Part shown: positions 1-40,286 of the stretch, one piece after another
How the letters are laid out: each line of letters opens with the position of its first letter
Position numbering within the stretch: the stretch's first letter is position 1
Virus record (IMG/VR): IMGVR_UViG_2541047822_000001
Location: 1-40,286 of that record
Length of the DNA: 40,286 nucleotides
Origin: a virus
Taxonomy: Duplodnaviria > Heunggongvirae > Uroviricota > Caudoviricetes
Reading direction: 5' to 3' (one strand)
Made by a program: the position numbers and the translations under genes
Notes under the pieces: generated by a model
The model's database searches: none
What the model saw: the letters and a program-made list of their open reading frames with translations, nothing else
Told to the model about the DNA's origin: nothing

Positions 1-1254
1 ATGCTGGAACAAATGGGCATTGCCGCGAAGCAAGCCTCGTATAAATTAGCGCAACTCTCCAGCCGCGAAAAAAATCGTGTGCTGGAAAAAATCGCCGATG
101 AACTGGAAGCACAAAGCGAAAGTATCCTCAACGCTAACGCGCAGGATGTTGCAGACGCGCGTGCCAATGGCCTTAGCGAAGCGATGCTTGACCGTCTGGC
201 ACTGACGCCCGCACGGCTGAAAGGCATTGCCGACGATGTGCGCCAGGTGTGCAATCTCGCCGATCCGGTGGGGCAGGTAATCGATGGCGGCGTACTGGAC
301 AGCGGCCTGCGTCTGGAGCGCCGTCGCGTGCCGCTGGGGGTGATTGGCGTGATTTATGAAGCGCGCCCGAACGTGACGGTTGATGTTGCTTCCCTGTGCC
401 TGAAAACCGGTAACGCGGTGATCCTGCGCGGCGGCAAAGAAACCTGTCGCACTAACGCTGCAACGGTAGCGGTGATTCAGGACGCCCTGAAATCCTGCAG
501 CTTACCGGCGGGTGCCGTGCAGGCGATTGATAATCCTGACCGCGCGCTGGTCAGTGAAATGCTGCGTATGGATAAATACATCGACATGCTGATCCCGCGC
601 GGTGGCGCTGGCCTGCATAAACTGTGCCGCGAACAGTCGACGATCCCGGTGATCACAGGTGGTATAGGCGTATGCCATATTTACGTTGATGAAAGTGCAG
701 AGATCGCTGAAGCCCTGAAAGTGATCGTCAACGCGAAAACTCAGCGACCGAGCACATGTAATACGGTTGAAACGTTGCTGGTGAATAAAAACATCGCCGA
801 TAGTTTCCTGCCCGCATTAAGCAAACAAATGGCGGAAAGTGGCGTGACGTTACACGCTGATGCAGGTGCACTGGCGCAGTTGCAGACAGGCCCCGCGAAG
901 GTGGTGGCGGTTAAAGCCGAAGAGTATGACGATGAGTTTCTGTCATTAGATTTGAACGTCAAAATCGTTAGCGATCTTGACGATGCCATCGCCCATATTC
1001 GTGAACACGGCACGCAACACTCCGATGCGATCCTGACCCGCGATATGCGCAACGCCCAGCGTTTTGTTAACGAAGTGGATTCCTCCGCTGTTTACGTTAA
1101 CGCCTCTACGCGTTTTACCGACGGCGGCCAGTTTGGACTGGGGGCGGAAGTTGCGGTAAGCACACAAAAACTCCACGCGCGCGGCCCAATGGGGCTGGAA
1201 GCACTGACCACTTATAAGTGGATCGGCATTGGTGATTACACCATTCGTGCGTAA
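1..1254 (+). CDS. proA: gamma-glutamyl phosphate reductase, complete 417 aa
   Basis: Full-length ORF from ATG at position 1 to TAA at 1252..1254; translation matches the E. coli ProA sequence as I remember it ([37 protein letters not shown]...). Host backbone gene. Confidence 0.95.
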
Positions 1255-1259
1255 ATAAA

Positions 1260-1322
1260 ACCGGGTGATGCAAAAGTAGCCATTTGATTCACAAGGCCAT
1301 TGACGCATCGCCCGGTTAGTTT
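1260..1322 (+). terminator. hairpin plus T-rich tail downstream of proA
   Basis: Inverted repeat ACCGGGTGATGC (1260..1271) / GCATCGCCCGGT (1305..1316), one G-U wobble, followed by AGTTTTAAC. The long loop makes this a weak call. Confidence 0.35.
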
Positions 1323-1368
1323 TAACCTTGTCCACCGTGATTCACGTTCGTGAACATGTCCTTTCAGG

Positions 1369-1444
1369 GCCGATATAGCTCAGTTGGTAGAGCAGCGCAT
1401 TCGTAATGCGAAGGTCGTAGGTTCGACTCCTATTATCGGCACCA
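1369..1444 (+). tRNA. thrW: tRNA-Thr, anticodon CGT
   Basis: 76 nt GCCGATATAGCTCAG...GGTTCGACTCCTATTATCGGCACCA; acceptor stem GCCGATA/TATCGGC, anticodon loop TTCGTAA, T-loop GGTTCGACTCC, 3' CCA encoded. Sits directly downstream of proA as thrW does in E. coli. Confidence 0.9.
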
Positions 1445-1458
1445 TTTAAATCAATAAG

Positions 1459-2622
1459 TTACACATCATTAGTACCTTCCTTATTTTTTGACTGGGACAA
1501 ATTTGGGACCGATGGGTTCAGGATCGAGTCTATTTGCCGTGCGTGTTCGGTAAGGTGATTAGGTGCAAGGTGAGCATATCGACGAACCATTTCGATAGAC
1601 TCCCAGCCTCCCATTTCCTGTAACACTGACAACGGGACTCCGGCTTGAACCAGCCAACTTGCCCAGGTGTGTCTCAAGTCGTGAAATCTGAAATCATCAA
1701 TACCAGCCCGTCTCAGCGCCGCTTTCCAGGCTGTGTTTGCGTCATACCGCATCTTCCTTACTGTTGGCGCTTTCGTTCCGTCTGGTTTGGTACAGCTTTC
1801 CTTGTACACAAATACCCAACGGTGATGATTCCCGATTTGTTTTTTCAAAACGCGACATGCAGTATCATTCAGCGCAACGCCGATTGCGCGGTTTGATTTA
1901 CTCTCTTCCGGGTTTATCCATGCCACCCGGCGCTGCATATCTATTTGTTGCCATTCAAGGTTGATGATGTTCGAGCGTCTTAAGCCTGTTGCCAGTGCAA
2001 ATTCAACAACAGACTTTAATGGCTCCGGACATTCATCAATCAGCCTTTGTGCTTCATGGGGCTCCAGCCAGCGGATCCGTTTATTCTTTGGTTGAGGCAC
2101 TTTAATAATTGGTGCCTTATCCAGCATTTTCCATTCACGCTCTGCGGCTCTTAGTAGGGCCTTTATAAATGAAAGATGCGTAGCCTTCGTTGCAACGGAC
2201 GCTGGTTTTGGCGTGTATTCTGGAACAGGTTTCCCTTTTTTTCTGCATGCTTCTGCCCTGAGTTTCCAGTTTTCCTCATGACGCCGGTTCGTCATTTTCT
2301 GCATTGCTGAATAAATTTTTGATTCAGTAATGTCTCTTAGTTGCATTCCTGCGAAATGTTGAAGCCAGAATCCGATCCGGCTTTTGTCATCGTCCAGTGA
2401 TTTTTTATGTGCTTTCTCTTCAAGCCACCTGACACACGCTTCCTCGAACGTTATATCAGGTATTTCACCAAGTTTGCTGACCCGCCATGCTTCAGCCTTT
2501 AGCTTGTCATGGAGTTCTGTCGCCTGCCTTTTGTCCTTTGTTCCAAGAGACTGTTTAAATCTTTTACCGTTCGGCAATGTGAAACTGGCGTACCATATTT
2601 CACCTCTGCGGAAGAGTGACAT
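1459..2622 (-). CDS. int: phage tyrosine integrase
   Basis: 387 aa; N-terminus [14 protein letters not shown]..., C-terminal catalytic region [39 protein letters not shown] (R..H..R..Y signature). Stop lies 14 bp from the tRNA 3' end, the usual int-next-to-att arrangement. Confidence 0.9.
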
Positions 2623-2849
2623 TTTCTTTCCTCTGTTATGCCATCACCCGCGCTCACCTGGACAGTATGCAGCGGAGACTGAAGAGCCGCAATGCAGGCT
2701 TGTCGTGTTGTGAGGTAAGGAGATTTATTCTTAGTGGGATCTTTGCGTGTTGCCTGAAGACGCCCTGTGCGTATCCAGTTAATGGCAGTCGGTCTGGATA
2801 TCTTGAGAAAATGACAGGCCTCATCGAGTGTGAGGCTGTATGGCTCCAT
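2499..2849 (-). CDS. xis: excisionase (P22/Sf6-type Xis, ~116 aa)
   Basis: Internal ATG at 2849 of track ORF 2499..2933 gives [37 protein letters not shown]..., a winged-helix excisionase-like N-terminus; overlaps int start as in P22-like phages. Start shares a TAATG overlap with the upstream gene. Confidence 0.7.
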
Positions 2850-3154
2850 TATTTCACCTCTTGCTGTGACATTGTTGAAAAATGGATACCTGCTCGTTGC
2901 TGCCAGACGATCCAACCGAGAGTCATATCCCATGCCATGTATTCGTTATCGCCGTTTTTTGCTCTCCGACGATCTACTAAGTCACCGAAACGCTTTTCCA
3001 TGAATAATTCATAAGCTTCGCGTTCATCTGGTTCTACTTCCAGAGATAGGAGTGCGATTTCATAAGCACGGCGCTCAATATCGTCTCGCACGTCAAGGCT
3101 GCTGATACGCTCTTTAATTTCTTTAATCAGTTCTTTGTCGGTAAAAGTGGTCAT
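2849..3154 (-). CDS. hypothetical early protein
   Basis: 101-aa ORF translationally coupled on both sides (ATGA/TAATG overlaps) inside the leftward early operon. Confidence 0.55.
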   Translation of the reverse strand: MTTFTDKELIKEIKERISSLDVRDDIERRAYEIALLSLEVEPDEREAYELFMEKRFGDLVDRRRAKNGDNEYMAWDMTLGWIVWQQRAGIHFSTMSQQEVK

Positions 3155-3516
3155 TATGCTCCAGCCTCCGGTGCTTTTGGCATTACTGCCCAGTGAGTGA
3201 TATTGACGTTTTCAAGGTCCCCGACCTGAAATGTCCACTGCCATTCTCCGGTTTCTTTTTGTCCCCAGGTGTACCAGAGAGAACGCCAGCCAATTAGCCA
3301 GCCTTCTCCGTTAGCATCGAATAACAAAACACTTTCATTTGCTGGTGGCAGTTCAGTTGACACTGGTATTACTTTGTTTTCCTGTGCTGCACATTTAGCT
3401 TCAAGCGCATCGAATTTACGCACCAGGTATTCAGCATCTGTTTCATTCACTTTCAGATCTCGCGGTACACATCTCCCACGAAGAAACCCTTCCATTTCGA
3501 AAACATTCATGCGCAT
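3154..3516 (-). CDS. DUF551-like phage protein
   Basis: 120 aa; C-terminal W-rich region ...GEGWLIGWRSLWYTWGQKETGEWQWTFQVGDLENVNITHWAVMPKAPE resembles DUF551 (ends in THW.P.P). GGAG sits 9 nt before the ATG. Confidence 0.6.
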   Translation of the reverse strand: MRMNVFEMEGFLRGRCVPRDLKVNETDAEYLVRKFDALEAKCAAQENKVIPVSTELPPANESVLLFDANGEGWLIGWRSLWYTWGQKETGEWQWTFQVGDLENVNITHWAVMPKAPEAGA

Positions 3517-4043
3517 TTGCGTAACTCCGATAACTCGTTAAAACGTTCCATAAACATCCCGTAGGCATGGCCCGGTGCCTGTGGAATCACTTTGAACATC
3601 TCTGTTGCCGGGATACCTTCCAGTACAGGCCAGAAAGAGCCATCATCAAGCCCGAGATCGCGGCGTTCGGTTGCCAGCATAATGAGATCGGCATATTTCA
3701 CTGGCGTGCTCATAATAGGAGGTAACCCGTATTTCTCACGGATTACGGCGTCTATTTTTTCTTCCATCCGTTTATAGTCAGGAAGAAGTCGTTTCAGTGG
3801 TGCGGGGATGTCCTGGCAATATGCTTCTGTTGCATCATGCATTAAAGCTTCAAAAGCAAATTCCTGTGGCACCAGCTGGCTGCAAAGCACCGCATGTTGG
3901 GCGACACTGTAGAAGTGTGAAAGATGTCCTGCAAAGCGACAGATATTTGAAAGGGAAACCGCGATATCGTTAATAACGATGTCGTCTTTATTTATCCTGT
4001 CATAATAAAAATGCTTCCCGGAAAAAGTTTTAATAAATGACAT
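3507..4043 (-). CDS. HD-domain phosphohydrolase
   Basis: H...HD metal-binding motifs (FAGHLSHFYSVAQHAVL, LMHDATEAY). Track ORF starts at a GTG at 4070, but the ATG at 4043 has a GGAGA Shine-Dalgarno 7 nt upstream, so I take 4043. Confidence 0.8.
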   Translation of the reverse strand: MSFIKTFSGKHFYYDRINKDDIVINDIAVSLSNICRFAGHLSHFYSVAQHAVLCSQLVPQEFAFEALMHDATEAYCQDIPAPLKRLLPDYKRMEEKIDAVIREKYGLPPIMSTPVKYADLIMLATERRDLGLDDGSFWPVLEGIPATEMFKVIPQAPGHAYGMFMERFNELSELRKCA

Positions 4044-4140
4044 TTTGTTCTCCACGTATATGCGCTGCACCGCGCTGAATTCGGGTAAAAGGAAGCCCTC
4101 ACCGTCCGGCGATTATTGAGTCAATTACATTTCCATAAAT

Positions 4141-4372
4141 GCCCCCGTAGGGGCGGTTAGTTTCTCCACAAAACAGAGAAGAACACCTGCGGTGGCAGCC
4201 GCCCGGATGGATTGGGTTATGAGCCCGTCGTCCGGTGATGCTCTTCTCTGTTTTGTAAAAAGGACGGTACCAGCCGGAAGCAAAGGTACAAGCTGGTACC
4301 GCCAAGACTACACACAGCATAAAGTTGTGGTGCCGGGTGCCTCCCGGTGCCTGGCGAAGGTTGCACACCAGG
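4141..4372. other. GC-rich structured non-coding block (candidate RNA element)
   Basis: No protein-like ORF across 4071..4556. Perfect 15-bp inverted repeat ACAAAACAGAGAAGA (4168..4182) / TCTTCTCTGTTTTGT (4242..4256); hairpins GCCCC-CGTA-GGGGC (4141..4154), GGTACCAGC...GCTGGTACC (4266..4300), CCTGG...CCAGG (4350..4372). Strand and function unknown. Confidence 0.3.
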
Positions 4373-4556
4373 CGGGTGGGTATCCACAGAAGGTCGACTG
4401 TCAGCCTCAACCTTAACCCGCGTGCGCTGAGCCGCATTCACCACAACGCTAAGGATTCTCTCTGGTTGAAAATACTTAGCTGTTATGTGCCTGTCTTTTC
4501 ACCACTTCAGGCTCGGTGGTATCCTTTTAAGCCCGTATACATAAAAGGAAAATCAA

Positions 4557-4802
4557 ATGACTTTTGATGAAAAAGAACTTGATAATGCAATTAATAAAAT
4601 CATCGTAACGTCGCTCTTTTCCTGTCTCAGCGACACTCAGCAAAAACAGTTCTACGAATCGGCTTTCAACATGATCGAGCGTTGTTGTTTCTGCGATGCC
4701 GACGAGTTACCTGAAAAAATCAGGAAACAGTTGGCTGATGCTCTTCGAGTGCGACTTTCTGACCAATTTTCTGAAATGTACTCTTCGAATTTGGACAAAT
4801 AG
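4557..4802 (+). CDS. hypothetical small protein (81 aa)
   Basis: AAGGA Shine-Dalgarno 8 nt before ATG; helical-looking sequence. The 3' end overlaps convergent ORF 4720..4995 by 83 nt, so one of the two may be spurious. Confidence 0.4.
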   Translation: MTFDEKELDNAINKIIVTSLFSCLSDTQQKQFYESAFNMIERCCFCDADELPEKIRKQLADALRVRLSDQFSEMYSSNLDK

Positions 4803-4995
4803 AAAAAGGCCATTTCCATTCAGGGTCTGATGGAAAGACTTCAGCCTGTTCTAAAGCACGGCGTAAAGAGAACACAACTCCAGCCATAATCTGATGTTTC
4901 CCATTGGTCCAGCTATCGCCGCTCTGATCTACAGGAGCGGCTATGTCGTATGACCAAACGACTTCACCACTATTGTTTAAAATCTGGACTTTCAT
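4720..4995 (-). CDS. hypothetical small protein (91 aa)
   Basis: GGAGG 10 nt upstream of ATG at 4995; follows the upstream gene on the same strand after a 9-nt gap. The C-terminal third overlaps 4557..4802. Confidence 0.45.
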   Translation of the reverse strand: MKVQILNNSGEVVWSYDIAAPVDQSGDSWTNGKHQIMAGVVFSLRRALEQAEVFPSDPEWKWPFSICPNSKSTFQKIGQKVALEEHQPTVS

Positions 4996-5003
4996 TTTGT
5001 TCT

Positions 5004-5207
5004 TTAACCTCCAGATTTCCGCGCATCTAAAGGCGCATTCTCATTTGGTGTGAACTGAATAGTTGTGCTGATATTGATTAATGCCCCGACACACAAGACT
5101 ACGCACTCAGAGCAGATAGCAACTTCATCTTTTCCGCCTTTGGCGATGATTTTTTTTGCCTGCAGCTCGTTTGCGCCACAAAACGAGCATGTGAAATAAC
5201 GGTTCAT
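5004..5207 (-). CDS. small protein with ClpX-type C4 zinc finger (~67 aa)
   Basis: MNRYFTCSFCGANELQAKKIIAKGGKDEVAICSECVVLCVGALI matches the N-terminal zinc-binding domain of ClpX (CSFCGK...KLIAG...ICDECVDLC). Second in-frame ATG at 5207 has an AAGAGAG Shine-Dalgarno. Confidence 0.6.
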   Translation of the reverse strand: MNRYFTCSFCGANELQAKKIIAKGGKDEVAICSECVVLCVGALINISTTIQFTPNENAPLDARKSGG

Positions 5208-5303
5208 TTGCGCTCTCTTACACATAGTATTTAACGAATCATCCGGTCATTCATACGCCACCGGCGGCTACTTCGTGGGCGTCCTGCCTGTTCGTTGTTT
5301 TAA

Positions 5304-5357
5304 CACCTTTAAGTTGTAATTTAGTTGTGGTTTTGAATGTTGTCAACAACTTTATGT
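5304..5357. promoter_or_regulatory. OL-like operator cluster
   Basis: CACCTTTAAGTTGTAAT (5304..5320) and ACAACTTTATGT (5346..5357) recur in the cI/cro intergenic region (CACCTAAAAGTTGTGAT at 7024..7040; ACAACTTTATGT at 6999..7010). Half-sites AAGTTGT/ACAACTT are reverse complements. Confidence 0.5.
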
Positions 5358-5409
5358 GGTTTGAACGAGTAGCCAAGGAGTGCAAGGATTATCAAAAAAA
5401 GGAGGTTGT

Positions 5410-6300
5410 ATGGAAGACGCGCTTTACGCTTTTAATTACACACAGAACCGGGACAAGTTATTTGCTAACTTGATTAGCATCATTGATGGAATTATTGCAG
5501 ATGGAGTTGTCCGTGAAGAGGAGGTTCTTTACTTAGATACATGGTTACTTGAAGCAAAGCAGATTATCAATAATGGAGTTATAAAAAGTCTATCAGCACG
5601 GGTGTCGGATATTCTTGCAGATGGAATAATCACATCAGAAGAACGTGATGACCTTAAAAATAGCCTTCTCCAAATACAGAGGGAAATTCTTGATATCCCT
5701 GAAATTGATTTTTACTCCAAGGATGTAGATGTCCATTTACTTAATGGACTATGTAAAGGATTAATTGCTGATCGGAACTTAACTCAAGAAGAAATAAGAT
5801 ATCTTAATTGGTGGCTTGAGCAAAATGGAGCTTTGAAGAACAACTACCCAGGAAAAAAACTTTATGCACTTGTAAAGGAAATTCTTAAAGATGGTGTTAT
5901 TACTGAAGATGAGAGTTTAACTCTACATAAGGCATTAGTAGACTTCACAGGATGTGACTTGGAAAGTGGAGTGGTGGATGGTTTGGCGACCAGGCTGCCT
6001 ATTGATGTAGGGGCTTCGATAGAGTTAGAGGGTAAAACCTATTGTCTTACAGGCACTTTTGTTGCAGGAAAGAGAGCCGTAGTTGAAAATTTGATTAAAA
6101 ATGCTGGTGGGAACATCAGTAGTGGAATTACTCAAAAGTTGGATTTTTTAGTAATTGGGACGCTTTCCTCCCGTGATTGGAAATTCTCAAGTCACGGAAG
6201 GAAGATCGAAAAGGCTATATCTTATAGGGATGATAATGGTGCAAAACTTAAAATTATTTCTGAAGAAATGCTTTTCGATGCATTACCAAGTTCGCGATGA
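5410..6300 (+). CDS. accessory protein: four TerB-like repeats plus C-terminal BRCT domain (296 aa)
   Basis: ATG at 5410 with AAAGGAGG Shine-Dalgarno (track begins at an upstream GTG). Repeats IADGVVREEEVLYLDTWL / LADGIITSEERDDLKNSL / IADRNLTQEEIRYLNWWL / LKDGVITEDESLTLHKAL; C-terminus LEGKTYCLTGTFVAGKRAVVENLIKNAGGNISSGITQKLDFLVIG...AKLKIISEEMLFDAL fits the BRCT pattern of NAD-ligase C-termini. Visibly AT-rich. Confidence 0.8.
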   Translation: MEDALYAFNYTQNRDKLFANLISIIDGIIADGVVREEEVLYLDTWLLEAKQIINNGVIKSLSARVSDILADGIITSEERDDLKNSLLQIQREILDIPEIDFYSKDVDVHLLNGLCKGLIADRNLTQEEIRYLNWWLEQNGALKNNYPGKKLYALVKEILKDGVITEDESLTLHKALVDFTGCDLESGVVDGLATRLPIDVGASIELEGKTYCLTGTFVAGKRAVVENLIKNAGGNISSGITQKLDFLVIGTLSSRDWKFSSHGRKIEKAISYRDDNGAKLKIISEEMLFDALPSSR

Positions 6301-6969
6301 CCAGAATACCCTACCTATAACATGAATTCTGGCTCGTCTATCTTCAAAGGTGAGTATTTCATCTGGGTACTCATCTTTGTTGAAGCTTCTAAGAATCAAG
6401 CCACCGTCAGGTAAGTTGATAAGTATTTTAACCCTTAGCAATACACCATCTCGTACGGCATAAAGATCGCCATCACGAATAGGAACGGTTTGAGAAATAT
6501 CAACGGCAACAAGATCTCCATTATTGAGAACCGGTAATAAACTGTTCCCCCATATTTTTACGATCTTGGCATTAGATGCACATACGCCAGATTTTCTCAA
6601 ATCTGCTCTTCTTAATGGAAACCAGTCAATAGCTGATTCAACTATTTCAGCCAGACATCCGTTACCTGCCGATAACTCGACATCTAAAACAGGAATGTTT
6701 ACGAAAATATCGGGGTCTAATGCGGTGCTTTCTGCTTCTTTTACAACAAGATCAGGTATGGATGCGTTGTCTTCAATACCAAGTTGTAACCACTTTTGTG
6801 ATACACCTAAAACTTTTGCAATTTCTTTAATTTTGCGCGGTTGTAGAGTTTCGCCATTCTCTATTTTGGCTACAGATTGTTGTGAAAGTCCAATTTTTTC
6901 AGCTAGTTGAGCTTGGCTCATGCCAGCTTTCTCTCTACCTATCTTTAATCGTTCTGCCAGTGTTTTCAC
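6283..6969 (-). CDS. cI: CI-like repressor (HTH_XRE + S24 LexA-like peptidase)
   Basis: N-terminal HTH (LAERLKIGREKAGMSQAQLAEKIGLSQQSVAKIENGE) and C-terminal S24 autocleavage domain (...GNSLLPVLNNGDLVAVD...). GTG start at 6969 preceded by GAGGG; diverges from cro across an operator-rich gap. Confidence 0.9.
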   Translation of the reverse strand: MKTLAERLKIGREKAGMSQAQLAEKIGLSQQSVAKIENGETLQPRKIKEIAKVLGVSQKWLQLGIEDNASIPDLVVKEAESTALDPDIFVNIPVLDVELSAGNGCLAEIVESAIDWFPLRRADLRKSGVCASNAKIVKIWGNSLLPVLNNGDLVAVDISQTVPIRDGDLYAVRDGVLLRVKILINLPDGGLILRSFNKDEYPDEILTFEDRRARIHVIGRVFWSSRTW

Positions 6970-6994
6970 AACATATCCCTCTCTTTTTTGATGA

Positions 6995-7082
6995 GGTTAC
7001 AACTTTATGTTTTAGCTTTCCAACACCTAAAAGTTGTGATAAAAGTTGTTAATGTTGTATTCTTGCAACTCGTAACAACTTA
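6995..7082. promoter_or_regulatory. OR-like operator/promoter region between cI and cro
   Basis: 135-bp divergent intergenic region with several AAGTTGT/ACAACTT half-sites (6999..7010, 7024..7040, 7041..7060, 7071..7082), sharing 12–17-mers with the 5304..5357 cluster. Confidence 0.6.
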
Positions 7083-7104
7083 ACTACCTAAAAAGGAGAA
7101 AGCT

Positions 7105-7353
7105 ATGACACCTGAGCAATTAGCCTTATCGGAGGCAATCGCTCTGGCTGGTGGTCAATCAGAATTGGCTCGGAAGCTCACAGCCAGCAGCGGTCATTTA
7201 GTAAAGCAACAACATGTCTGGAACTGGTTGAACAGAGAAAAGCGTCCCCCTGCAAAGCTCTCGATATTCATTGAAAAGACCACTGGCATATCAAAAGAAA
7301 AATTACGTCCAGATATTTTTCAAAAGATTAAAGATTCATCAGATGAAAAGTAA
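7105..7353 (+). CDS. cro: Cro-like HTH regulator
   Basis: 82 aa, AAAAGGAG Shine-Dalgarno, divergent from cI; HTH-like segment GGQSELARKLTASSGHLVKQQHVWNW. Confidence 0.75.
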   Translation: MTPEQLALSEAIALAGGQSELARKLTASSGHLVKQQHVWNWLNREKRPPAKLSIFIEKTTGISKEKLRPDIFQKIKDSSDEK

Positions 7354-7375
7354 CCACAGTTTTAAGGAGATAGCC

Positions 7376-7927
7376 GTGGGTAAGCATCACTGGAAAGTAG
7401 AAAAACAGCCTAAGTGGTACGTGAAAGCTGTCAGAAAAACTATCGCGGCGTTGCCGGGTGGTTACGCTGAAGCTGCTGACTGGCTGGATGTAACAGAGAA
7501 CGCATTATTTAACCGCCTTCGTGCCGATGGCGATCAGATTTTCCCGCTGGGATGGGCAATGGTTTTACAGCGCGCAGCTGGCACTCACTACATTGCGGAT
7601 GCTGTCGCACAGTCTGCTGGTGGGGTGTTCGTATCGCTTCCTGAAATTGAGGAAGTAGAGAACGCCGATATAAACCAGCGCCTGCTGGAAGTCATCGAAC
7701 AGATCGGGAGTTACTCAAAGCAGATTCGTTCGGCAATCGAAGATGGGGTAGTGGAGCCACACGAGCAGACAGCAATTAACGACGAGCTGTATCTCTCAAT
7801 TTCGAAGCTGCAGGAGCATGCAGCACTGGTCTACAAAATCTTTTGCATTTCAGAAAGTAATGACGCCCGCGAGTGTGCAGCTCCGGGCGCCGTGGCGTGT
7901 CGTGACTGTGGAGAAACTAACGCATGA
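7376..7927 (+). CDS. CII-like / early regulatory protein
   Basis: Position after cro. I favour the GTG at 7376 (AAGGAG 6 nt upstream) over the track start 7271 or the ATG at 7343 that overlaps the cro stop. Family name is from memory of similar prophage proteins (MGKHHWK...). Confidence 0.5.
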
Positions 7928-8262
7928 ACAGTTTAACAACACACTACCGTCGCTCGCAACTGATTGCGCTTCCTGTACCGGGTGGAAAAGCGAAGGTGGA
8001 GTATTGCTATGCAGTTAATGTACCTGGTGACAGGGAAATTGTAACCCACAGCTTTGCTGAGTGGGCTGTGGGTGATTTCAACCGGCAGAAGGAGACAGTC
8101 CTTTGCGACAAGTTAACCGCTGGTTCAAAGATCACTACGGAGTGCCCGTCAGAGTCATTCGTTGGGAGCCGGAAACACAACGAGTTATCTACCTCCGCGA
8201 AGGCTATGAGCATGAGTGCTTCAGCCCGCTCGAACAGTTTCGTCGTAAATTCAGGGAAATAG
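7924..8262 (+). CDS. hypothetical protein (possibly frameshifted, see findings)
   Basis: ATG at 7924 overlaps the upstream stop (ATGA). The first ~60 codons look protein-like; the rest is Ser/Ala-rich, while a second frame (8103..8282) reads better. Confidence 0.45.
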
Positions 8263-8271
8263 AGGTCGGTC

Positions 8272-9213
8272 ATGAGCACTAAATTAACCGGCTATGTATG
8301 GGATGGTTGCGCTGCATCAGGCATGAAATTATCCAGCGTGGCAATTATGGCCCGCCTGGCTGATTTCAGTAATGACGAAGGTGTGTGCTGGCCATCAATT
8401 GAAACTATTGCCCGTCAGATTGGCGCGGGGATGAGTACCGTCAGGACGGCTATCGCACGGCTGGAAGCAGAAGGCTGGTTAACGCGTAAGGCGCGTAGCC
8501 AGGGTAACCGCAATGCGTCGAATGTTTATCAGCTTAACGTTGCGAAGCTTCAGGCAGCGGCATTTTCTCAACTGTCAGATTCTGACCCGTCAAAATCTGA
8601 CGCATCAAAATCTGACCCGTCAAAATTTGATGCGTCGAAATCTGGCAAAAAAGCGGGTTTTCACCCGTCAGAATCTGGCGGGGATCCGTCAGTAAAATCA
8701 AAACATGATCCGTCAGATAAAAAACCTTCTCGTCCGGACGCTTCGCAACCGGACACGCAGACGGATGAACAGGATTTTTTAACTCGCCATCCTGATGCGG
8801 TTGTATTCAGCCCTAAAAAGCGCCAGTGGGGAACGCAGGATGATTTGACCTGCGCACAGTGGCTCTGGAAAAAAATCATCGCCCTGTACGAGCAAGCCGC
8901 CGAATGTGACGGCGAGGTGGTTCGTCCCAAAGAACCGAACTGGACAGCCTGGGCAAACGAAATTCGCCTGATGTGTGTGCAGGATGGTCGTACTCACAAA
9001 CAAATCTGCGAGATGTACAGCCACGTCAGCCGCGATCCGTTCTGGTGCCGTAACGTGCTCAGCCCGTCGAAGTTGCGGGAAAAATGGGATGAGCTTTCCC
9101 TGCGCTTATCACCGTCCGTCAGCACGTACACCGAAAAACGCGAAGACCCGTACTTCAAATCCAGTTACGACAACGTGGACTACAGCCAGATCCCGGCAGG
9201 ATTCAGGGGGTGA
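8272..9213 (+). CDS. replication initiator (HTH replication protein, lambda-O-like role) with internal origin repeats
   Basis: N-terminal HTH (...CWPSIETIARQIGAGMSTVRTAIARLEAEGWL...) followed by a repeat-encoded low-complexity linker (SDSDPSKSDASKSDPSKFDASKSG); GAGGT Shine-Dalgarno. Confidence 0.8.
   Translation: MSTKLTGYVWDGCAASGMKLSSVAIMARLADFSNDEGVCWPSIETIARQIGAGMSTVRTAIARLEAEGWLTRKARSQGNRNASNVYQLNVAKLQAAAFSQLSDSDPSKSDASKSDPSKFDASKSGKKAGFHPSESGGDPSVKSKHDPSDKKPSRPDASQPDTQTDEQDFLTRHPDAVVFSPKKRQWGTQDDLTCAQWLWKKIIALYEQAAECDGEVVRPKEPNWTAWANEIRLMCVQDGRTHKQICEMYSHVSRDPFWCRNVLSPSKLREKWDELSLRLSPSVSTYTEKREDPYFKSSYDNVDYSQIPAGFRG
8573..8725 (+). repeat. iteron-like direct repeats (putative replication origin) inside the initiator gene
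   Basis: About seven tandem ~15-bp units of the form TCA(A/G)AATCTGAC(C/G)CG between 8573 and 8725, then an A-rich tract. Mirrors lambda, where ori iterons lie within O. Confidence 0.6.
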
Positions 9214-9215
9214 TC

Positions 9216-9704
9216 ATGAGTCTTTTGAATGACGTTCAGAAATTCATTGAAGCCCATCCGGGGTGTACTTCCGGAGACATTGCGGATGCTTTTGCAGGTT
9301 ACTCACGGCAGCGCGTTCTGCAGTCAGCAAGCAAGTTACGTCAGAGTGGGCGTGTGGCTCACCGTTGTGAAGGGGATACACGCAGACATTTCCCGCGCCA
9401 GACAGAGATATCGCAGGAGGCGGAACCGCAACCAGTTCGTGAAACCAGACCTGTGCGCAATTTCTATGTCGGCACTAACGATCCCCGGGTGATTTTGTGC
9501 CTGACCCGCCAGGCGGAAGAACTGGAGTCGAGGGGCTTATACCGTCGTGCTGCAACCGTGTGGATGGCGGCATTCCGTGAAAGCCACTCCCAGCCAGAGC
9601 GAAACAATTTTCTTGCGCGTCGTGAGCGGTGTTTACGGAAAAGCAGCAAGCGCGCTGTACCGGGTGATGAGTGGTATCTGTCAGGGAATTACGTGGGGGC
9701 TTAA
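9216..9704 (+). CDS. hypothetical protein with PerC-like C-terminal region
   Basis: ATG at 9216 (AGGGGG Shine-Dalgarno) overlaps the upstream stop. C-terminal ...AEELESRGLYRRAATVWMAAFRESHSQPERNNFLARRERCLRK resembles the PerC/Pch activator motif as I remember it. Confidence 0.55.
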   Translation: MSLLNDVQKFIEAHPGCTSGDIADAFAGYSRQRVLQSASKLRQSGRVAHRCEGDTRRHFPRQTEISQEAEPQPVRETRPVRNFYVGTNDPRVILCLTRQAEELESRGLYRRAATVWMAAFRESHSQPERNNFLARRERCLRKSSKRAVPGDEWYLSGNYVGA

Positions 9705-10357
9705 TGAGTAATAAATATTGCCAGGCGCTGGTCGAACTGCGGAACAAACCAGCCCATGAACTGAAGGAAGTGGGCGATCAGTGGCGCACGCCGGATAACA
9801 TTTTCTTGGGAATTAACACCCTGTTTGGCCCGTTTGTTCTGGATCTGTTCACTGACGGTGATAACGCCAAATGTGCCGCGTATTACACGGCGGAAGACAA
9901 CGCGCTGGCGCATGACTGGTCAGAACGTCTTGCGGAGCTTAAAGGTGCTGCCTTTGGTAATCCCCCATACAGCCGCGCCAGTCAGCATGAGGGGCAATAC
10001 ATCACCGGCATGCGTTACATCATGAAGCATGCCAGTGCCATGCGTGATAAAGGCGGGCGCTATGTTTTCCTGATCAAAGCTGCCACCAGCGAAGTGTGGT
10101 GGCCGGAAGATGCAGATCATATTGCTTTTATTCGCGGGCGTATTGGTTTTGAACTGCCTGTCTGGTTTATCCCGAAAGACGAGAAGCAGGTACCGACAGG
10201 CGCTTTCTTCGCTGGTGCTATTGCTGTTTTCGACAAGACCTGGAAGGGACCGGCAATCAGCTACATCGGGCGCGATGAACTTGAGGCATGTGGTGAGGCC
10301 TTTCTGGCGCAGGTTCGCCAGCAGGCGGAAAAACTGGTCAGGGAGATGGCGGCATGA
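9704..10357 (+). CDS. phage N6-adenine DNA methyltransferase (Dam-like)
   Basis: Catalytic NPPY motif (AAFGNPPYSRA) and overall phage_N6A_met-like sequence; ATG at 9704 overlaps the upstream stop (TAATG). Confidence 0.85.
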   Translation: MSNKYCQALVELRNKPAHELKEVGDQWRTPDNIFLGINTLFGPFVLDLFTDGDNAKCAAYYTAEDNALAHDWSERLAELKGAAFGNPPYSRASQHEGQYITGMRYIMKHASAMRDKGGRYVFLIKAATSEVWWPEDADHIAFIRGRIGFELPVWFIPKDEKQVPTGAFFAGAIAVFDKTWKGPAISYIGRDELEACGEAFLAQVRQQAEKLVREMAA

Positions 10358-10680
10358 CGACGTTAACTCAATGCCAGCAGCAGGTGCTGGATATGCTGAT
10401 TTCTTACCAGAAAGAGCGTGGCTTTCCGCCAACCAATCAGGAGGTGGCAACCATGCTGGGATATCGTTCAGTGAATGCAGCGGTGGAGCATCTTCGCGCA
10501 CTGGAGAAAAAAGGCGTCATCACGATAAAGCGTGGTGTGGCCCGGGGGATAACGCTTCATACCGCGGTGAAGGACGACGACAGCGAGGCGGTCGGGATTA
10601 TCCGCTCACTGCTTGCCGGTGAGGAAAACGCCAGGCTGCGTGCAGCCCACTGGTTACATGAGAGGGGTCTGAAAGTATGA
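10354..10680 (+). CDS. LexA N-terminal DNA-binding-domain-only protein
   Basis: LTQCQQQVLDMLISYQKERGFPPTNQEVATMLGYRSVNAAVEHLRALEKKGVI matches the LexA winged-helix N-domain (LT.RQ.EVL..I......G.PPT..EIA..LG..S.NAA..HL.AL..KG.I); no S24 protease domain follows. Confidence 0.7.
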   Translation: MTTLTQCQQQVLDMLISYQKERGFPPTNQEVATMLGYRSVNAAVEHLRALEKKGVITIKRGVARGITLHTAVKDDDSEAVGIIRSLLAGEENARLRAAHWLHERGLKV

Positions 10681-11066
10681 AGCTGATCCTGCCTTTCCCG
10701 CCCAGCGTGAACACGTACTGGCGACACCCCAACAAAGGGGCGTTTGCAGGTAAGAGCCTGATAAGCGCGGCGGGGCGCAAATTCCAGAGCGCGGCGTGTG
10801 CAGCAATAGTTGAGCAGTTACGTCGTCTGCCAAAACCAACGTCGGCACCTGCTTCAGTGGAGATCGTGTTGTTTCCTCCGGATAACCGGATCCGCGATCT
10901 GGACAACTATAACAAGGCGCTGTTTGACGCCCTGACCCACGCGGGTGTGTGGGAAGACGACAGTCAGGTGAAAAGAATGCTGGTGGAGTGGGGACCGGTT
11001 ATCCCGGAAGGGAAGGTCGAGATCACTATCAGTAAGTACGAGAAAACGGCGGGTGCAGCCGCCTGA
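10677..11066 (+). CDS. rusA: Holliday-junction resolvase RusA
   Basis: MKLILPFPPSVNTYW... is the characteristic RusA N-terminus; size and catalytic Asp-containing C-terminal region fit. Confidence 0.9.
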   Translation: MKLILPFPPSVNTYWRHPNKGAFAGKSLISAAGRKFQSAACAAIVEQLRRLPKPTSAPASVEIVLFPPDNRIRDLDNYNKALFDALTHAGVWEDDSQVKRMLVEWGPVIPEGKVEITISKYEKTAGAAA

Positions 11067-11085
11067 GCAAGAGGAGAAACGAAGT

Positions 11086-11895
11086 ATGAATAATCTGATG
11101 GTCATTGATGGTATTGAAGTTCGTCGTGATGCTTATGGGCGTTACAGCCTGAACGATCTGCACAGGGCAGCCGGGGGAGAACAAAAAAACCGCCCGAAAT
11201 ACTGGCTCTCCAATAAGCAAACCTGTGAATTGATTGAACAACTTTTCACCGAGGGTGGAATTCCGCCTCTGGAACAAAATCAACCAGTTAGCGTCATTAA
11301 TGGCGGAAATAACCAGGGGACGTATGTCTGCAAAGAACTGGTGTATGCCTATGCAATGTGGATCAGCCCGTCATTCCATCTGAAGGTGATCCGTACTTTC
11401 GATATGGTAACCAGCGCATCGGAAAAATTATCCGGGCAGGCTGCTGACAAGATGCAGGCTGGAGTGATTCTGCTGGACTTTATGCGCAGGGAGTTAAACC
11501 TGTCTAACTCTTCAGTGCTTGGTGCCTGTCAGAAACTCCAGGAGGCTGTTGGCTTACCGAATCTGGCACCGCGCTATGCCATTGATGCTCCTGCTGATGC
11601 ACACGATGGCTCAAGTCGCCCGACACTGTCACTGAGTGCACTGCTGAAACAGTATGGTATCCGCCTGACGGCTAATCAGGCATATCACCAGATGGTGAAA
11701 CTGGGGATCGTCGAGCAGCGCGAACGATACAGCCGTACCGCGATTAACAACATCAAAAAATTCTGGTCGCTGACAGCGAAAGGTTGCATGTACGGCAAGA
11801 ACATCACCAGTCCCGCAAATCCGCGCGAGACGCAGCCGCATTTCTTCGAATCCCGATTCCCTGAGCTGTTAAAGCTGCTCGATACCGTTCATTGA
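11086..11895 (+). CDS. KilA-N domain protein (antirepressor-like)
   Basis: ATG at 11086 with GAGGAG Shine-Dalgarno; N-terminus MNNLMVIDGIEVRRDAYGRYSLNDLHRAAGGEQKNRPKYWL... fits KilA-N. Confidence 0.8.
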   Translation: MNNLMVIDGIEVRRDAYGRYSLNDLHRAAGGEQKNRPKYWLSNKQTCELIEQLFTEGGIPPLEQNQPVSVINGGNNQGTYVCKELVYAYAMWISPSFHLKVIRTFDMVTSASEKLSGQAADKMQAGVILLDFMRRELNLSNSSVLGACQKLQEAVGLPNLAPRYAIDAPADAHDGSSRPTLSLSALLKQYGIRLTANQAYHQMVKLGIVEQRERYSRTAINNIKKFWSLTAKGCMYGKNITSPANPRETQPHFFESRFPELLKLLDTVH

Positions 11896-11896
11896 G

Positions 11897-12892
11897 GTGA
11901 CCGTGAGAGCACTACTGACCCCTGAAATTGCCCCGCGTATGGGGATCGTATTGTTCAGGCCAGGTTCAGAGCTGATGCCCCTGTTTATGCAGGGGCGTGT
12001 CCTGCTGGAGCCTGAGCCGGAGCGTTATTCATCTTTCGCCAGTGGTGCCGTTCCGGCAGCATCACAACCGCTGGCGGATGATCCTGCCGTTCGGGCCGTG
12101 TTCCGCAATGAGGCAGTGATCCGTCGTGCTGGTGGCGTGGAATGTCTTGAAAGCTGGTTACTTCGTGAAAAAGGCTGCCAGTGGCCTCATTCCGACTGGC
12201 ACAGCGAGAACATGACCACAATGCGGCACGCGCCGGGCGCAATCCGTCTGTGCTGGCACTGCGATAACCAGTTGCGCGATCAGTTCACGGAACGGCTGGA
12301 ATCAATGGCAACGGATAACTGTGCCCGCTGGGTGTTATCTGTTGTGCGCCGTGATCTCGGTTTTGATGATAGTCACGTTGTGACAATGCCGGAACTGTGC
12401 TGGTGGCTGGTTCGTAATGACCTGGCGGATGCCTTACCGGAAAGTGCAGCCCGTAAGGCACTGAGATTACCGAAGCCTGTTGTGCCGTCTGTTACCCGGG
12501 AAAGTGACCTTGTGCCTTCGGTTCCTGCCACCAGCATCATCCAGGATAAAGCGAAAAAGGTGCTGGCGCTGAAAGTGGATCCGGAGTCGCCGGAGTCTTT
12601 TATGTTACGCCCAAAACGTCGCCGCTGGGTTAATGAAAAGTACACGCGCTGGGTTAAGACACAGCCGTGTGCATGTTGTGGAAAGCCTGCTGATGATCCC
12701 CACCACCTGATAGGTCACGGTCAGGGTGGAATGGGAACAAAAGCGCATGACCTCTTTGTGTTGCCTTTGTGCAGAAAGCATCACGACGAGCTGCATGCGG
12801 ATACCGTGGCATTTGAAGAGAAGTATGGCTCCCAGCTGGAGCTGATATTTCGTTTTATCGATCGTGCGCTGGCAATAGGCGTACTGGCGTAA
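11897..12892 (+). CDS. DUF968 domain protein
   Basis: C-terminal Cys/His cluster RWVKTQPCACCGKPADDPHHLIGHGQGGMGTKAHDLFVLPLCRKHHDELH is typical of DUF968 proteins found in lambdoid prophages. Confidence 0.8.
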   Translation: MTVRALLTPEIAPRMGIVLFRPGSELMPLFMQGRVLLEPEPERYSSFASGAVPAASQPLADDPAVRAVFRNEAVIRRAGGVECLESWLLREKGCQWPHSDWHSENMTTMRHAPGAIRLCWHCDNQLRDQFTERLESMATDNCARWVLSVVRRDLGFDDSHVVTMPELCWWLVRNDLADALPESAARKALRLPKPVVPSVTRESDLVPSVPATSIIQDKAKKVLALKVDPESPESFMLRPKRRRWVNEKYTRWVKTQPCACCGKPADDPHHLIGHGQGGMGTKAHDLFVLPLCRKHHDELHADTVAFEEKYGSQLELIFRFIDRALAIGVLA

Positions 12893-12905
12893 GTGGAGAA
12901 CGAGC

Positions 12906-13658
12906 ATGAACCTTGAAGCCTTACCAAAATATTACTCCCCAAAATCTCCAAAATTGAGTGATGACGCACCGGCGACAGGCTCGGGTGGTTTAACAATTAC
13001 AGATGTGATGGCTGCGCAGGGGATGGTGCAGTCGAAAGCACCGCTTGGGTTTGCCTTATTCCTGGCAAAAGTTGGTGTTCAGGATCCTCAGTTTGCGATT
13101 GAAGGTCTGCTCAATTACGCGATGGCACTGGATAACCCGACATTGAATAAATTGAGTGAAGAAACCCGGCTACAGATCATTCCTTACCTTGTGAATTTTG
13201 CCTTTGCTGATTATTCCAGATCTGCGGCAAGTAAGGCTCGCTGTGAGCATTGTGCAGGTACGGGATTTCATAATGTATTGCGCGAAGTGGTGAAACACTC
13301 CAGAAACGGGGAATCTGTTATCAAGGAAGAGTGGGTGAAGGAACTATGTCAGCATTGTCATGGTAAGGGAGAAGTCAGCACAGCGTGCAGAGGGTGTAAG
13401 GGTAAAGGTATTGTCCTGGATGAAAAAAGAACCCGGCTTCATGGCATGCCTGTTTATAAGATTTGTGGGCGTTGCAATGGAAACCGGTTTAGCCGTTTAC
13501 CAACCACACTGGCGCGGCATCATGTCCAGAAGCTGGTACCAGACCTGACGGATTATCAGTGGTACAAAGGATATGCAGATGTCATTGATAAACTGGTGAC
13601 AAAGTGCTGGCAGGAAGAAGCATATGCTGAGGCGCAATTAAGAAAAGTGACGAGATAA
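12906..13658 (+). CDS. late-gene antiterminator Q-like protein
   Basis: Cys-rich zinc-finger region (CEHCAGTG...CQHCHGKG...CRGCKGKG...CGRCNGN) and position just upstream of the late/lysis genes, followed by a promoter-plus-terminator arrangement. Confidence 0.65.
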   Translation: MNLEALPKYYSPKSPKLSDDAPATGSGGLTITDVMAAQGMVQSKAPLGFALFLAKVGVQDPQFAIEGLLNYAMALDNPTLNKLSEETRLQIIPYLVNFAFADYSRSAASKARCEHCAGTGFHNVLREVVKHSRNGESVIKEEWVKELCQHCHGKGEVSTACRGCKGKGIVLDEKRTRLHGMPVYKICGRCNGNRFSRLPTTLARHHVQKLVPDLTDYQWYKGYADVIDKLVTKCWQEEAYAEAQLRKVTR

Positions 13659-13689
13659 ATGATTTTCGCCGAATATAGCGACATGATTC

Positions 13690-13718
13690 TTGCATTTTTC
13701 AAAAAATCTGGTTAGGAT
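13690..13718 (+). promoter_or_regulatory. candidate late promoter (pR'-like)
   Basis: TTGCAT (13690..13695), 17-nt spacer, TAGGAT (13713..13718), about 30 nt after Q and ~50 nt before a terminator hairpin. Hexamer match only. Confidence 0.3.
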
Positions 13719-13768
13719 TTTCCTAACGATGGGCTTTGTATGTCTGCCGTTAACGAAATCATAACAAA

Positions 13769-13789
13769 CCTCGCTTCGGCGGGGTTTTT
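13769..13789 (+). terminator. intrinsic terminator (tR'-like)
   Basis: CCTCGC-TTCG-GCGGGG hairpin (one G-U pair, UUCG tetraloop) followed by TTTTT. Confidence 0.55.
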
Positions 13790-14130
13790 GCTTTTCTGGA
13801 GGGTAAGAAAATGCACCAGTAAACGGATAGACCGCAGCCGATAGGCAAATCCGCAGTCGTGATGCGGTCCCGAGTCTCCATGAGAGCCAGATGCAGGTAC
13901 GAACTGCAACACACACTGGTTAGGGTTAATAAAGAAGAGGTGTGCCGGTACTCCAGAACGATCGCCAATCGTTCTCCGGTTAGAGGTGAGGGATTCATGA
14001 GATACCCCTGACTACGGTCTCAAAGGCATGAGCGCGGCCACTGCGAGAGTGTGGTAAGCAACAGAATAGTAATTCACAGGCCCCTTATGTAAATGCTATA
14101 AAAGCGGACTATTGAAAAGGAGAGTTCGCT

Positions 14131-14772
14131 ATGTCAAAAACCTTTGAGCAAATGAAACTTAATTTTATTTATTTGCACGAATTATGGTTGTTAACTCATT
14201 CGATAAAAACACGCTGTGAAGAGCTCTTTCATGAGACACCACTTCCTGATGCTGGTTACTACTTTAAAATTGATTACAATATTCATATATTAATAAATAG
14301 CATTCTTTCAGATGCGGCTAACGTCAAGAAACTAATCGCAGTTCCTAAAAATAAGACTAGGGAAGAATCCCCTGAACAATTCAGATTGCATATTGAGCGA
14401 AGTAATTACCTTCAACAAAAAATAAAAGATATTGAAATTAAGGAAATTAATTCCGTGAGGGTGAGAAACACCTTGCAACACTTCGATGAGTATTTAGATC
14501 AGCTAAACATTGATGTTACAGCAGGGAAGATGAAAGGTCATGGTATTGCAGTTTATAATTTTGTGATCTCCCACTGGAAGGCAATCAACCCTAGGCCATA
14601 TCCGATAAGGTTATATGTTTGTGAGGAAAAAACATACTATAATATGAAGGCGTCAATTAACTTAGAAAAAGTTTACAATGAGGCTTTTCAGGTTAATGAG
14701 GTAATCCGTAAAGAAATAAATAAAGAAGCTGGTGCAGAGCCTGGTAGCTTTATGGTTCCTTTAAACTTTTAA
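14131..14772 (+). CDS. AT-rich moron protein, unknown function (213 aa; possible HEPN-like R-x4-H motif)
   Basis: AAGGAG Shine-Dalgarno; strongly AT-rich; sits between Q and the holin where lambdoid phages carry cargo; own terminator immediately downstream. Contains RNTLQH, an R-x4-H pattern. Confidence 0.75.
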   Translation: MSKTFEQMKLNFIYLHELWLLTHSIKTRCEELFHETPLPDAGYYFKIDYNIHILINSILSDAANVKKLIAVPKNKTREESPEQFRLHIERSNYLQQKIKDIEIKEINSVRVRNTLQHFDEYLDQLNIDVTAGKMKGHGIAVYNFVISHWKAINPRPYPIRLYVCEEKTYYNMKASINLEKVYNEAFQVNEVIRKEINKEAGAEPGSFMVPLNF

Positions 14773-14792
14773 ACTTTATAATTCTATTAACT

Positions 14793-14816
14793 GCCCCGTA
14801 ATAGCGGGGCTTTTTT
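14793..14816 (+). terminator. rho-independent terminator of the moron
   Basis: GCCCCG-TAATAG-CGGGGC hairpin followed by TTTTTT, 20 nt after the stop codon. Confidence 0.8.
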
Positions 14817-14932
14817 ATTTCAGGATCACGGGAATCATCCGTTACGTGCTTTGTTGATATATCCAGCCCGTGAAGCCTGAGCCTATTTCCCCTCATACCT
14901 GAGAGGACTCACAGCAATTAAGAGGGGGCTAA

Positions 14933-15319
14933 ATGTCCGATCCGATTTCCGGTACTGGGCTGGCTGGTGGTGCCCTGACGGGTGCCAGTGTTTATGGACT
15001 GCTGACCGGAACTGATTACGGCGTTGTATTTGGCGCATTTGCAGGGGCTGTATTCTACATAGCAACAGCAGCAGATCTGAGTGCATCGCGCCGACTGGCA
15101 TATTTTATCGTGTCATATATTGCCGGGATTCTTTGCTCTGGGTTGGTTGGCTCCAAGCTGGCGAACTTGACCGGATACAGTGATAAACCTCTGGATGCTA
15201 TTGGTGCCGTAATCGTCTCTGCTTTAGCCGTTAAAATCCTGACGTTCCTGAATAATCAGGATATCGGCTCGCTGGTGGCGCTCATAACGCGCCGGGGAGG
15301 TTCAGGTGGAGCTAAATGA
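14933..15319 (+). CDS. putative holin
   Basis: 128-aa Gly/Ala-rich membrane protein with 2–3 predicted transmembrane segments, first gene of the lysis cluster. Confidence 0.6.
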   Translation: MSDPISGTGLAGGALTGASVYGLLTGTDYGVVFGAFAGAVFYIATAADLSASRRLAYFIVSYIAGILCSGLVGSKLANLTGYSDKPLDAIGAVIVSALAVKILTFLNNQDIGSLVALITRRGGSGGAK

Positions 15320-15587
15320 CCCGACAGCAACTATAAATGCGCTGTTATGTGCTTGTGTTGTTATTACTCTGATGTTTTATCGTCGTGGTGATTCGCGGCA
15401 TCGTCCTTGGGTTTCACGTTTAGCCTGGCTGATTACTGTTACATACAGTGCTGTTCCGTTGGCCTATCTCTGTGGGATTTATCCCCATTCCTCATGGCCC
15501 ATTATCGTGGCGAACACTATTTTTCTTTCCGTGCTGGTGGCCGTCAGAGGCAACGTTGCACGTCTGATTGATCATCTGAGGCACTAA
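15306..15587 (+). CDS. putative holin/antiholin-like membrane protein
   Basis: 93 aa with hydrophobic segments; GTG start with GGAGG Shine-Dalgarno; overlaps the preceding gene and abuts the endolysin. Confidence 0.55.
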   Translation: MELNDPTATINALLCACVVITLMFYRRGDSRHRPWVSRLAWLITVTYSAVPLAYLCGIYPHSSWPIIVANTIFLSVLVAVRGNVARLIDHLRH

Positions 15588-16201
15588 TGAACCAACAATT
15601 ATTTCAAAAGGCGGCTGGTATTAGCGCCGAACTGGCTGCGCGCTGGTTTCCGCATATTGATGCGGCGATGAAGGAATTCGGCATTACAGCACCAGCGGAT
15701 CAGGCAATGTTTATCGCTCAGATAGGCCATGAGTCGATGGGGTTTAGCGCCGTAGTTGAAAATTTTAACTACACACCATCTGCGCTGGTGGCGACGTTCG
15801 GAAAGAGGATCACACAGCAGCAGGCTGATGCCCTTGGCAGAACATCCGGACATGCAGCTCGTCAGGATGCTATTGCCAATCTGGTGTATAGCAACCGACT
15901 GGGTAACAAAGCACCAGGTGATGGCTGGAAATATCGTGGTAGAGGATTAATTCAAATCACAGGCCTCCATAATTATCGCATCTGTGGCGCGGCGCTGAAG
16001 TTAGATCTGGTGACTTCACCTGAACAACTGGAACAGGAACTACAGGCGGCGCGCTCAGCTGCATGGTTCTACACCTCTAAAGGCTGCATGATCTACGGTG
16101 CCGATATTAACCGTGTTACGCGCATTATTAACGGCGGTCTGAACGGTATTGAGGATCGTAAGGTCCGATACAACAGGGCGCGGGCGGTGCTGCTGGTATG
16201 A
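15587..16201 (+). CDS. endolysin (GH19 chitinase-like lysozyme)
   Basis: Motifs QIGHESMGF ... GRGLIQITG..NY typical of GH19-type phage endolysins; TAATG overlap with the upstream gene. Confidence 0.85.
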   Translation: MNQQLFQKAAGISAELAARWFPHIDAAMKEFGITAPADQAMFIAQIGHESMGFSAVVENFNYTPSALVATFGKRITQQQADALGRTSGHAARQDAIANLVYSNRLGNKAPGDGWKYRGRGLIQITGLHNYRICGAALKLDLVTSPEQLEQELQAARSAAWFYTSKGCMIYGADINRVTRIINGGLNGIEDRKVRYNRARAVLLV

Positions 16202-29579: not shown

Positions 29580-29639
29580 TGAAAAATTAATCTGTTAATG
29601 AGTCCCACTCCGGTGGGATTTTTTATGTACGGAGTTTAT

Positions 29640-34630: not shown

Positions 34631-34633
34631 TCC

Positions 34634-35242: not shown

Positions 35243-35247
35243 TTGAA

Positions 35248-36759: not shown

Positions 36760-36785
36760 TCCTGCTTTTGTCAGGGGGAGCTACC

Positions 36786-39237: not shown

Positions 39238-40286
<1,049 letters not shown>

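Follow-up and report, generated by a model that had tools for sequence, protein, structure and literature searches.

A P22/Sf-type prophage at thrW with attL mapped to the base and attR apparently deleted beside IS5

Introduction

One and the same 46-mer has been printed as the att core of the phages SfI, SfII, SfV, SfX and P22 (PMC3636060), and the att core of SfIV is identical to it (PMC3851460). In the free SfIV sequence, attP is ordered as P arm, core (ATTCGTAATGCGAAGGTCGTAGGTTCGACTCCTATTATCGGCACCA, from L003 7199), P' arm and int. SfIV (KC814930) shares with SfV, SfI and SfII both this 46-bp core and the chromosomal site, the tRNA gene thrW beside proA. The gene is a common target. CP4-6 of E. 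coli K-12 starts inside thrW, and in B2-type strains thrW is followed by a degenerate P4-like integrase remnant and vat. The position of the vat island adjacent to thrW is known from Parreira and Gyles (2003), as that work is cited in PMC7332727.

Here, we analyse a DNA window of 40,286 nucleotides (by window we mean this whole stretch) that begins in proA, passes through thrW and runs through a prophage into an IS5 element. The locus very probably records the integration of an SfV/SfIV-family prophage at thrW, which later lost its attR beside the IS5 and was left stranded and defective. The left boundary can be fixed to the base, whereas the right boundary lies outside the window and in the source genome is apparently deleted. 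Comparing the window with free SfIV, with complete genomes that share its right part and with prophage-free thrW sites, we describe the two ends of the element in turn, and then its body and cargo.

Results

The thrW gene and attL

ARAGORN identified a single tRNA gene in the window, an intact tRNA-Thr gene (anticodon CGT/CGU) at 1369-1444 on the plus strand, which is identical to thrW of E. coli K-12 at 76 of 76 positions. The proA gene (1-1254) lies upstream of it, in the arrangement seen in K-12. The SfIV attP core is matched exactly at 1399-1444 on the plus strand, and this stretch is also the published 46-mer of SfI, SfII, SfV, SfX and P22. Within the tRNA gene, it extends from tRNA position 31, one base 5' of the anticodon loop, to the CCA end, and it occurs only once in the window. 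The first base of homology between the window and SfIV attP is 1399; that is, the break falls exactly at the edge of the core. From this base onwards, window 1399-2700 aligns without gaps to SfIV (L003 7199-8500) at 99.7% identity, with 4 mismatches in 1302 bases, and the match takes in the core, the P' arm, int and the start of xis. In this alignment, the 14-bp spacer behind the tRNA gene (1445-1458) is where the phage P' arm begins, the arm extending further into the 3' end of int. The left end is therefore built as in other members of the group: an intact thrW whose last 46 nucleotides are the attP core, then the P' arm and int. The tRNA gene stays intact because the phage core equals its 3' part. 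By sequence comparison, the predicted attL is mapped to single-base precision, with its core at 1399-1444.

At position 1447, the window has T in place of A (ACCATTTAAATC in the window, ACCATTAAAATC in both SfIV attP and K-12). The difference lies in the P' arm, two bases past the core and directly after the CCA of the tRNA, and has no obvious consequence.

The integrase gene (int, 1459-2622, minus strand) encodes a P22/SfIV-type tyrosine integrase of 387 aa. Its product matches the Phage_integrase profile (PF00589) over positions 1-171 of 172 (E = 3e-48), and its amino-acid identity is 100% to Int of Shigella phage SfIV and 89.9% to P22 Int. The stop codon occupies 1459-1461, exactly 14 bases (1445-1458) from the end of the tRNA gene. 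The excisionase gene xis, taken as its longest ORF (2499-2933, minus strand; HTH_17, E = 3e-8), overlaps the start of int; in relatives, PGAP places a helix-turn-helix CDS of 116 aa beside int at 2499-2849, and the SfIV counterpart is SfIV_29, annotated as 'excisionase'. Of 5,426 complete E. coli genomes, 845 contain the int-xis block at a coverage of at least 80% of window 1200-4200.

A preliminary description of this DNA had proposed a prophage integrated at thrW, with attL in the 3' end of the tRNA gene and an integrase stop codon 14 bp away from it. Integration at thrW is borne out by an Int identical to that of SfIV, an exact core and a precise prophage-free site (see below). The expected attL proved to be the published SfI/SfIV/SfV/P22 core at 1399-1444, and the 14-bp distance was confirmed to the base.

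The prophage-free site and the vat island

A comparison with an empty proA-thrW locus had been suggested in the same description. For this purpose, an empty site was reconstructed by joining window 945-1444 (the end of proA and thrW) to the first 500 bases beyond attR in the complete genome 22AR0750 (L001 14097-14596). Nissle 1917, ATCC 25922, clone D i2 and others contain the reconstructed junction without interruption and at 100% identity, and at least 80% of it is covered in 707 complete E. coli genomes; in related genomes without the prophage, thrW adjoins the DNA beyond attR directly. At the sequence level, the prophage is thus seen to have entered precisely between thrW and the vat island. 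In the genome from which the window derives, thrW carries two stacked elements, an SfIV-like prophage and then the vat island, the latter being merely the downstream neighbour of the former.

The two elements could instead be regarded as one composite mobile unit with its right boundary near yagU. The source genome has no copy of the core between the prophage and the vat island, and a remnant of a P' arm and int 3' end, 92.6% identical to window 1442-1616, adjoins yagU, as such a unit might lead one to expect. However, the vat island stands alone at thrW in the 707 genomes (at least 80% coverage of the junction) and corresponds to a described island (Parreira and Gyles 2003, in the form cited in PMC7332727). 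In the sister genomes, moreover, a copy of the core separates the two elements, and the remnant beside yagU is coreless and has the orientation of attL, not of attR. A composite unit is thus extremely improbable, and we retain the reading of two separate elements stacked at thrW.

The remnant beside yagU is a relic of 176 bp at the far end of the vat island (window-equivalent 46303-46478), comprising P' arm and int 3' end. We considered it as a displaced attR and rejected it on account of the missing core and the attL orientation. To judge from its content, it is a trace of an earlier P22/Sf-type prophage at the thrW hotspot.

attR in the window and in sister genomes

Searches of the window with the last 32 and the last 18 nucleotides of thrW, allowing up to 3 mismatches on either strand, gave no further copy of the tRNA 3' end; the only matches were in the tRNA gene itself. 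Likewise, a direct-repeat scan of 1300-40286 returned no family that includes 1399-1444. A direct repeat of the core together with a P arm at the right end, as carried by other members of the group, is absent from both the window and, up to yagU/ykgJ, its source assembly.

Two complete genomes, 22AR0750 and E371, share the left junction of the IS5 with the window, whose right part they match at 99.86-100% identity; over window 36700-39420, which includes this junction, they are 100% identical. Approximately 277 further genomes match at least 80% of the 36700-39420 query, and among the matches listed the alignment ends at 39237, the last base before IS5. Both sister genomes retain attR, about 1.46 kb past the end of the window. 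In 22AR0750, the attR core is located at L001 14051-14096 (window-equivalent 41750-41795); the 125 bp before it match the SfIV P arm, and arm and core together (L001 13926-14098) are 97.7% identical to SfIV, the homology to attP breaking off at the edge of the core on this side as well. Combining the attL of the window with the attR of the sister genome reconstitutes SfIV attP exactly. Downstream of attR, 22AR0750 has a truncated P4-like integrase gene, a marR-like gene and vat. At thrW of isolate F829 (L002), a prophage with another type of tail has an attR that is followed directly by backbone.

The sister genomes do not resemble the window along its whole length. 22AR0750 differs from it over 4-17 kb, in the early region, E371 has a left end unlike that of the window joined to the same right half, and no full-length match to the early region 4000-17400 was found in complete genomes; both were for these reasons rejected as the source of the window. 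Such differences might suggest that the two ends of the window prophage have separate origins: int would be a relic of an older element, the rest would have arrived by homologous recombination between prophages, and a matching attR would never have existed. The strong mosaicism of the family, including the early region without a full-length match, the exchange of left ends exemplified by E371 and the second, older int remnant beside yagU are all compatible with this scenario. It is countered by the sister genomes, in which the int end and the far P arm and core reconstitute SfIV attP exactly, and by the precision of the prophage-free junction. Furthermore, recombination within an integrated prophage alters its content but not its att ends. 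We consider separate origins very improbable, and retain the reading of one integration event that gave rise to both att sites.

IS5 and the deletion beside it

The window ends in an IS5 element (ISKpn26-like, annotated by PGAP), of which it contains the left end and the transposase gene (39238-40286, plus strand); the element extends in full to window-equivalent 40432, and the window stops at the transposase stop codon. In relatives, the IS5 is 1195 bp long, its transposase has the Pfam domain DDE_Tnp_1 and PGAP assigns it as IS5-like, ISKpn26 family. The CTAG target lies immediately to the left of the element (39234-39237), and in relatives that lack the IS the match to the window ends at 39237.

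Exact matches of encoded proteins identified the source of the window as the scaffold-level, short-read assembly GCA_000458825.1 (scaffold KE700731.1:321046-361331); KE700731.1 and the window are 100.000% identical over 4131-24772 and 27010-40286. In this assembly, the right end of IS5 is joined directly to the interior of the marR-like gene, with ...CGCACCTTCC on the IS5 side of the junction and CTAATATATAAG on the other. About 2,680 bp that follow the IS5 in 22AR0750 are missing. In 22AR0750, this segment of roughly 2.7 kb contains the attR core and its P arm, a gene of 266 aa, the P4-like integrase remnant and the beginning (5' end) of the marR-like gene. Measured against the IS-free relative L010, the source assembly lacks 3,035 bp, and 22AR0750 itself lacks 352 bp beside the same IS5. 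A search downstream for the repeat, which the preliminary description had proposed, gave no copy of the core after IS5, even at 3 mismatches, in the 8.6 kb to yagU/ykgJ (up to window-equivalent 48899) of the source assembly. The left flank of the IS5 is CTAG, and the right flank is CTAA in the source assembly and ATAA in 22AR0750, so that no 4-bp target duplication is present, which fits an IS5-associated deletion. In the source genome, attR was apparently deleted next to IS5, and either a one-ended adjacent deletion or recombination between two IS5 copies may have been responsible.

Among close relatives, the locus occurs in four states: without IS5, with IS5 at another position (L009), with IS5 at CTAG and 352 bp missing, and with IS5 at CTAG and 3,035 bp missing, the last being the state of the source. 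In this last state, the marR-like regulator gene upstream of vat has been cut short by the deletion, and the expression of vat might be altered as a result.

Two short-read scaffold assemblies are the basis for the loss of attR, and the collapse of two direct IS5 copies would mimic a deletion. If the deletion were such an assembly artefact of the IS5 repeat, attR would be intact about 1.46 kb past the window end, as it is in 22AR0750 and E371. That these genomes keep attR behind an identical IS5 left junction (99.86-100% in the right part) speaks for an artefact, as does the occurrence of the IS5/marR junction in 0 of 5,426 complete genomes, the source assembly being at scaffold level. On the other hand, the source scaffold is continuous, with no runs of N across the IS5 and both of its flanks, and the same junction is present in the independent assembly GCA_001030505.1, which agrees at 99.97%. 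The junction also falls at CTAA, an IS5-type target, inside the marR-like gene, as a real IS5-associated event predicts. An artefact is therefore unlikely, and a genuine deletion of attR remains the preferred reading.

With regard to the right end, the preliminary description had reported no second copy of the tRNA 3' segment in the window and had supposed the boundary to lie beyond it or to be lost. The k-mer and direct-repeat searches, which found the tRNA only, agree with the former, and both halves of the latter apply: the boundary is beyond the window in the sister genomes and deleted in the source assembly. The further statement that cargo and IS5 disrupt the right end survives for the IS5, together with its flanking deletion, but not for the cargo, since the GmrSD gene described below sits in the normal slot.

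Prophage body and cargo

The body of the prophage (2934-36785), delimited by the annotation of near-identical relatives, comprises a lambdoid early region, lysis genes, a P27-type terminase, an HK97-type head, a Mu-like contractile tail and an invertible tail-fibre segment. The phages vB_EcoM-720R4 and SfV cover 57-68% of window 1445-26000 at 97% identity. The major capsid gene (22092-23297) is interrupted in frame by a TAA codon at 22719-22721, which leaves ORFs of 209 aa and 134 aa, whereas relatives encode an intact major capsid protein of 401 aa; the prophage is probably unable to form heads.

Two further features of the body are recorded here. Iteron-like tandem repeats of 15 nt (TCAAAATCTGACNCR) are located at 8560-8682, within the replication initiator gene (8272-9213), and are probably the phage origin. 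Between the Q antiterminator and holin genes, a 213-aa ORF (14131-14772, plus strand) that is common to many related prophages occupies the position of a classic late-promoter moron site; no family was assigned to it in Pfam or PADLOC.

Inverted repeats of 20 nt (34918-34937 and 36705-36724) delimit the invertible tail-fibre segment (34918-36724), in which there are two alternative pairs of fibre-tip and assembly genes. The segment is followed by a truncated Pin/Gin-type DNA invertase gene of 41 codons (36786-36908, plus strand), annotated by PGAP as 'recombinase family protein, incomplete'; the 42-aa product of the fragment matches the Pfam family Resolvase, and an intact gene of 184 aa is present in the relative L025. 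In the near-identical relatives L012 and L017, the segment has the opposite orientation despite the truncated invertase gene next to it. The inversion would either predate the truncation or have been catalysed in trans by another invertase.

The cargo gene (37010-38899, minus strand) encodes a GmrSD-family type IV methyl-directed restriction enzyme of 629 aa with the Pfam domains GmrSD_N and GmrSD_C, and PADLOC assigns it to mREase_IV with 1479 bits over 1-629 of 629 positions. It occupies the attP-proximal slot, which in SfIV holds gtrA-gtrB-gtrIV. The same GmrSD cassette ends the prophage of different tail type at thrW in isolate F829 (L002), and the relative L025 has a GIY-YIG gene in this slot instead. 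The attP-proximal slot looks like an exchangeable position for defence genes.

Discussion

The proposed history starts with a temperate phage of the SfV/SfIV family, with lambdoid early genes and a Mu-like tail, that would have entered thrW. Recombination by its P22-type tyrosine integrase would have taken place between the 46-bp attP core and the last 46 nucleotides of the tRNA gene, which are identical to it. The crossover is likely to have taken place in the anticodon-loop region, because identity starts at tRNA position 31. The expected product is an intact thrW made of the bacterial 5' part and the core, followed by the phage P' arm (attL) with int and xis directly behind, and a second copy of the core (attR) would be expected at the opposite end, beyond the cargo slot. 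The vat island was presumably at thrW already, in which case the prophage came to lie between thrW and the island. At a later time, IS5 would have inserted at CTAG (39234-39237), and approximately 2.7-3.0 kb after the IS5 would then have been lost together with the P arm and the attR core, possibly through the action of the IS5 itself.

With Int and Xis deprived of a partner site, the prophage would be unable to excise precisely, and it appears stranded. The nonsense codon in the capsid gene would render it defective in any case, independently of the loss of attR. The absence of attR is a secondary loss and is no argument against membership in the group of P22/SfV-type prophages at thrW. We also advance, tentatively and with more doubt than conviction, that the loss of attR is more than decay: the IS5-linked deletion would have fixed the GmrSD prophage directly beside the vat toxin island, and the lineage would retain it for the benefit of its defence gene. 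If this is true, the locus would offer a datable case of prophage domestication, the element having become a defence island at the thrW hotspot. In practical terms, tools that define prophage boundaries by direct repeats will fail at this locus, and annotation should score the prophage as defective and non-excisable, yet as delivering a GmrSD-type defence gene.

Deletions adjacent to insertion sequences are known to strand prophages, and this locus has the corresponding features: an IS5 left junction that is unchanged, a right flank that varies between relatives and no 4-bp duplication. The vat pathogenicity island of APEC/ExPEC and CP4-6 use the same tRNA gene but have another type of integrase, with an Arm-DNA-bind_3 N-terminus, and are not phages.

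P22 is a podovirus, and its virion module is different from that of the window prophage. Its integration system is nevertheless close to the one described here, with the same 46-bp core (PMC3636060), an Int of 89.9% identity and an int gene that adjoins attP and is convergent with the tRNA gene. The closest counterpart is SfIV: the two Int proteins are identical in amino-acid sequence, and the DNA from the core through the P' arm and int to xis agrees at 99.7%. The two prophages also share the overall architecture of a lambdoid early region, a Mu-like tail, tail-fibre genes and an attP-proximal cargo slot. They differ in several respects. The early region of the window is a different mosaic, its host is an E. 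coli with a vat island, attR is deleted and the capsid gene contains a stop codon. Neither gtrA-gtrB-gtr(type) nor oac, the mark of serotype-converting phages, stands beside attP; the slot is taken by a GmrSD-type type IV restriction enzyme, and the window prophage has the Sf backbone without being a serotype-converting phage. As a whole, the element belongs to the well-described group of P22/Sf-type prophages that integrate at thrW, in which it will come as no surprise to the specialist.
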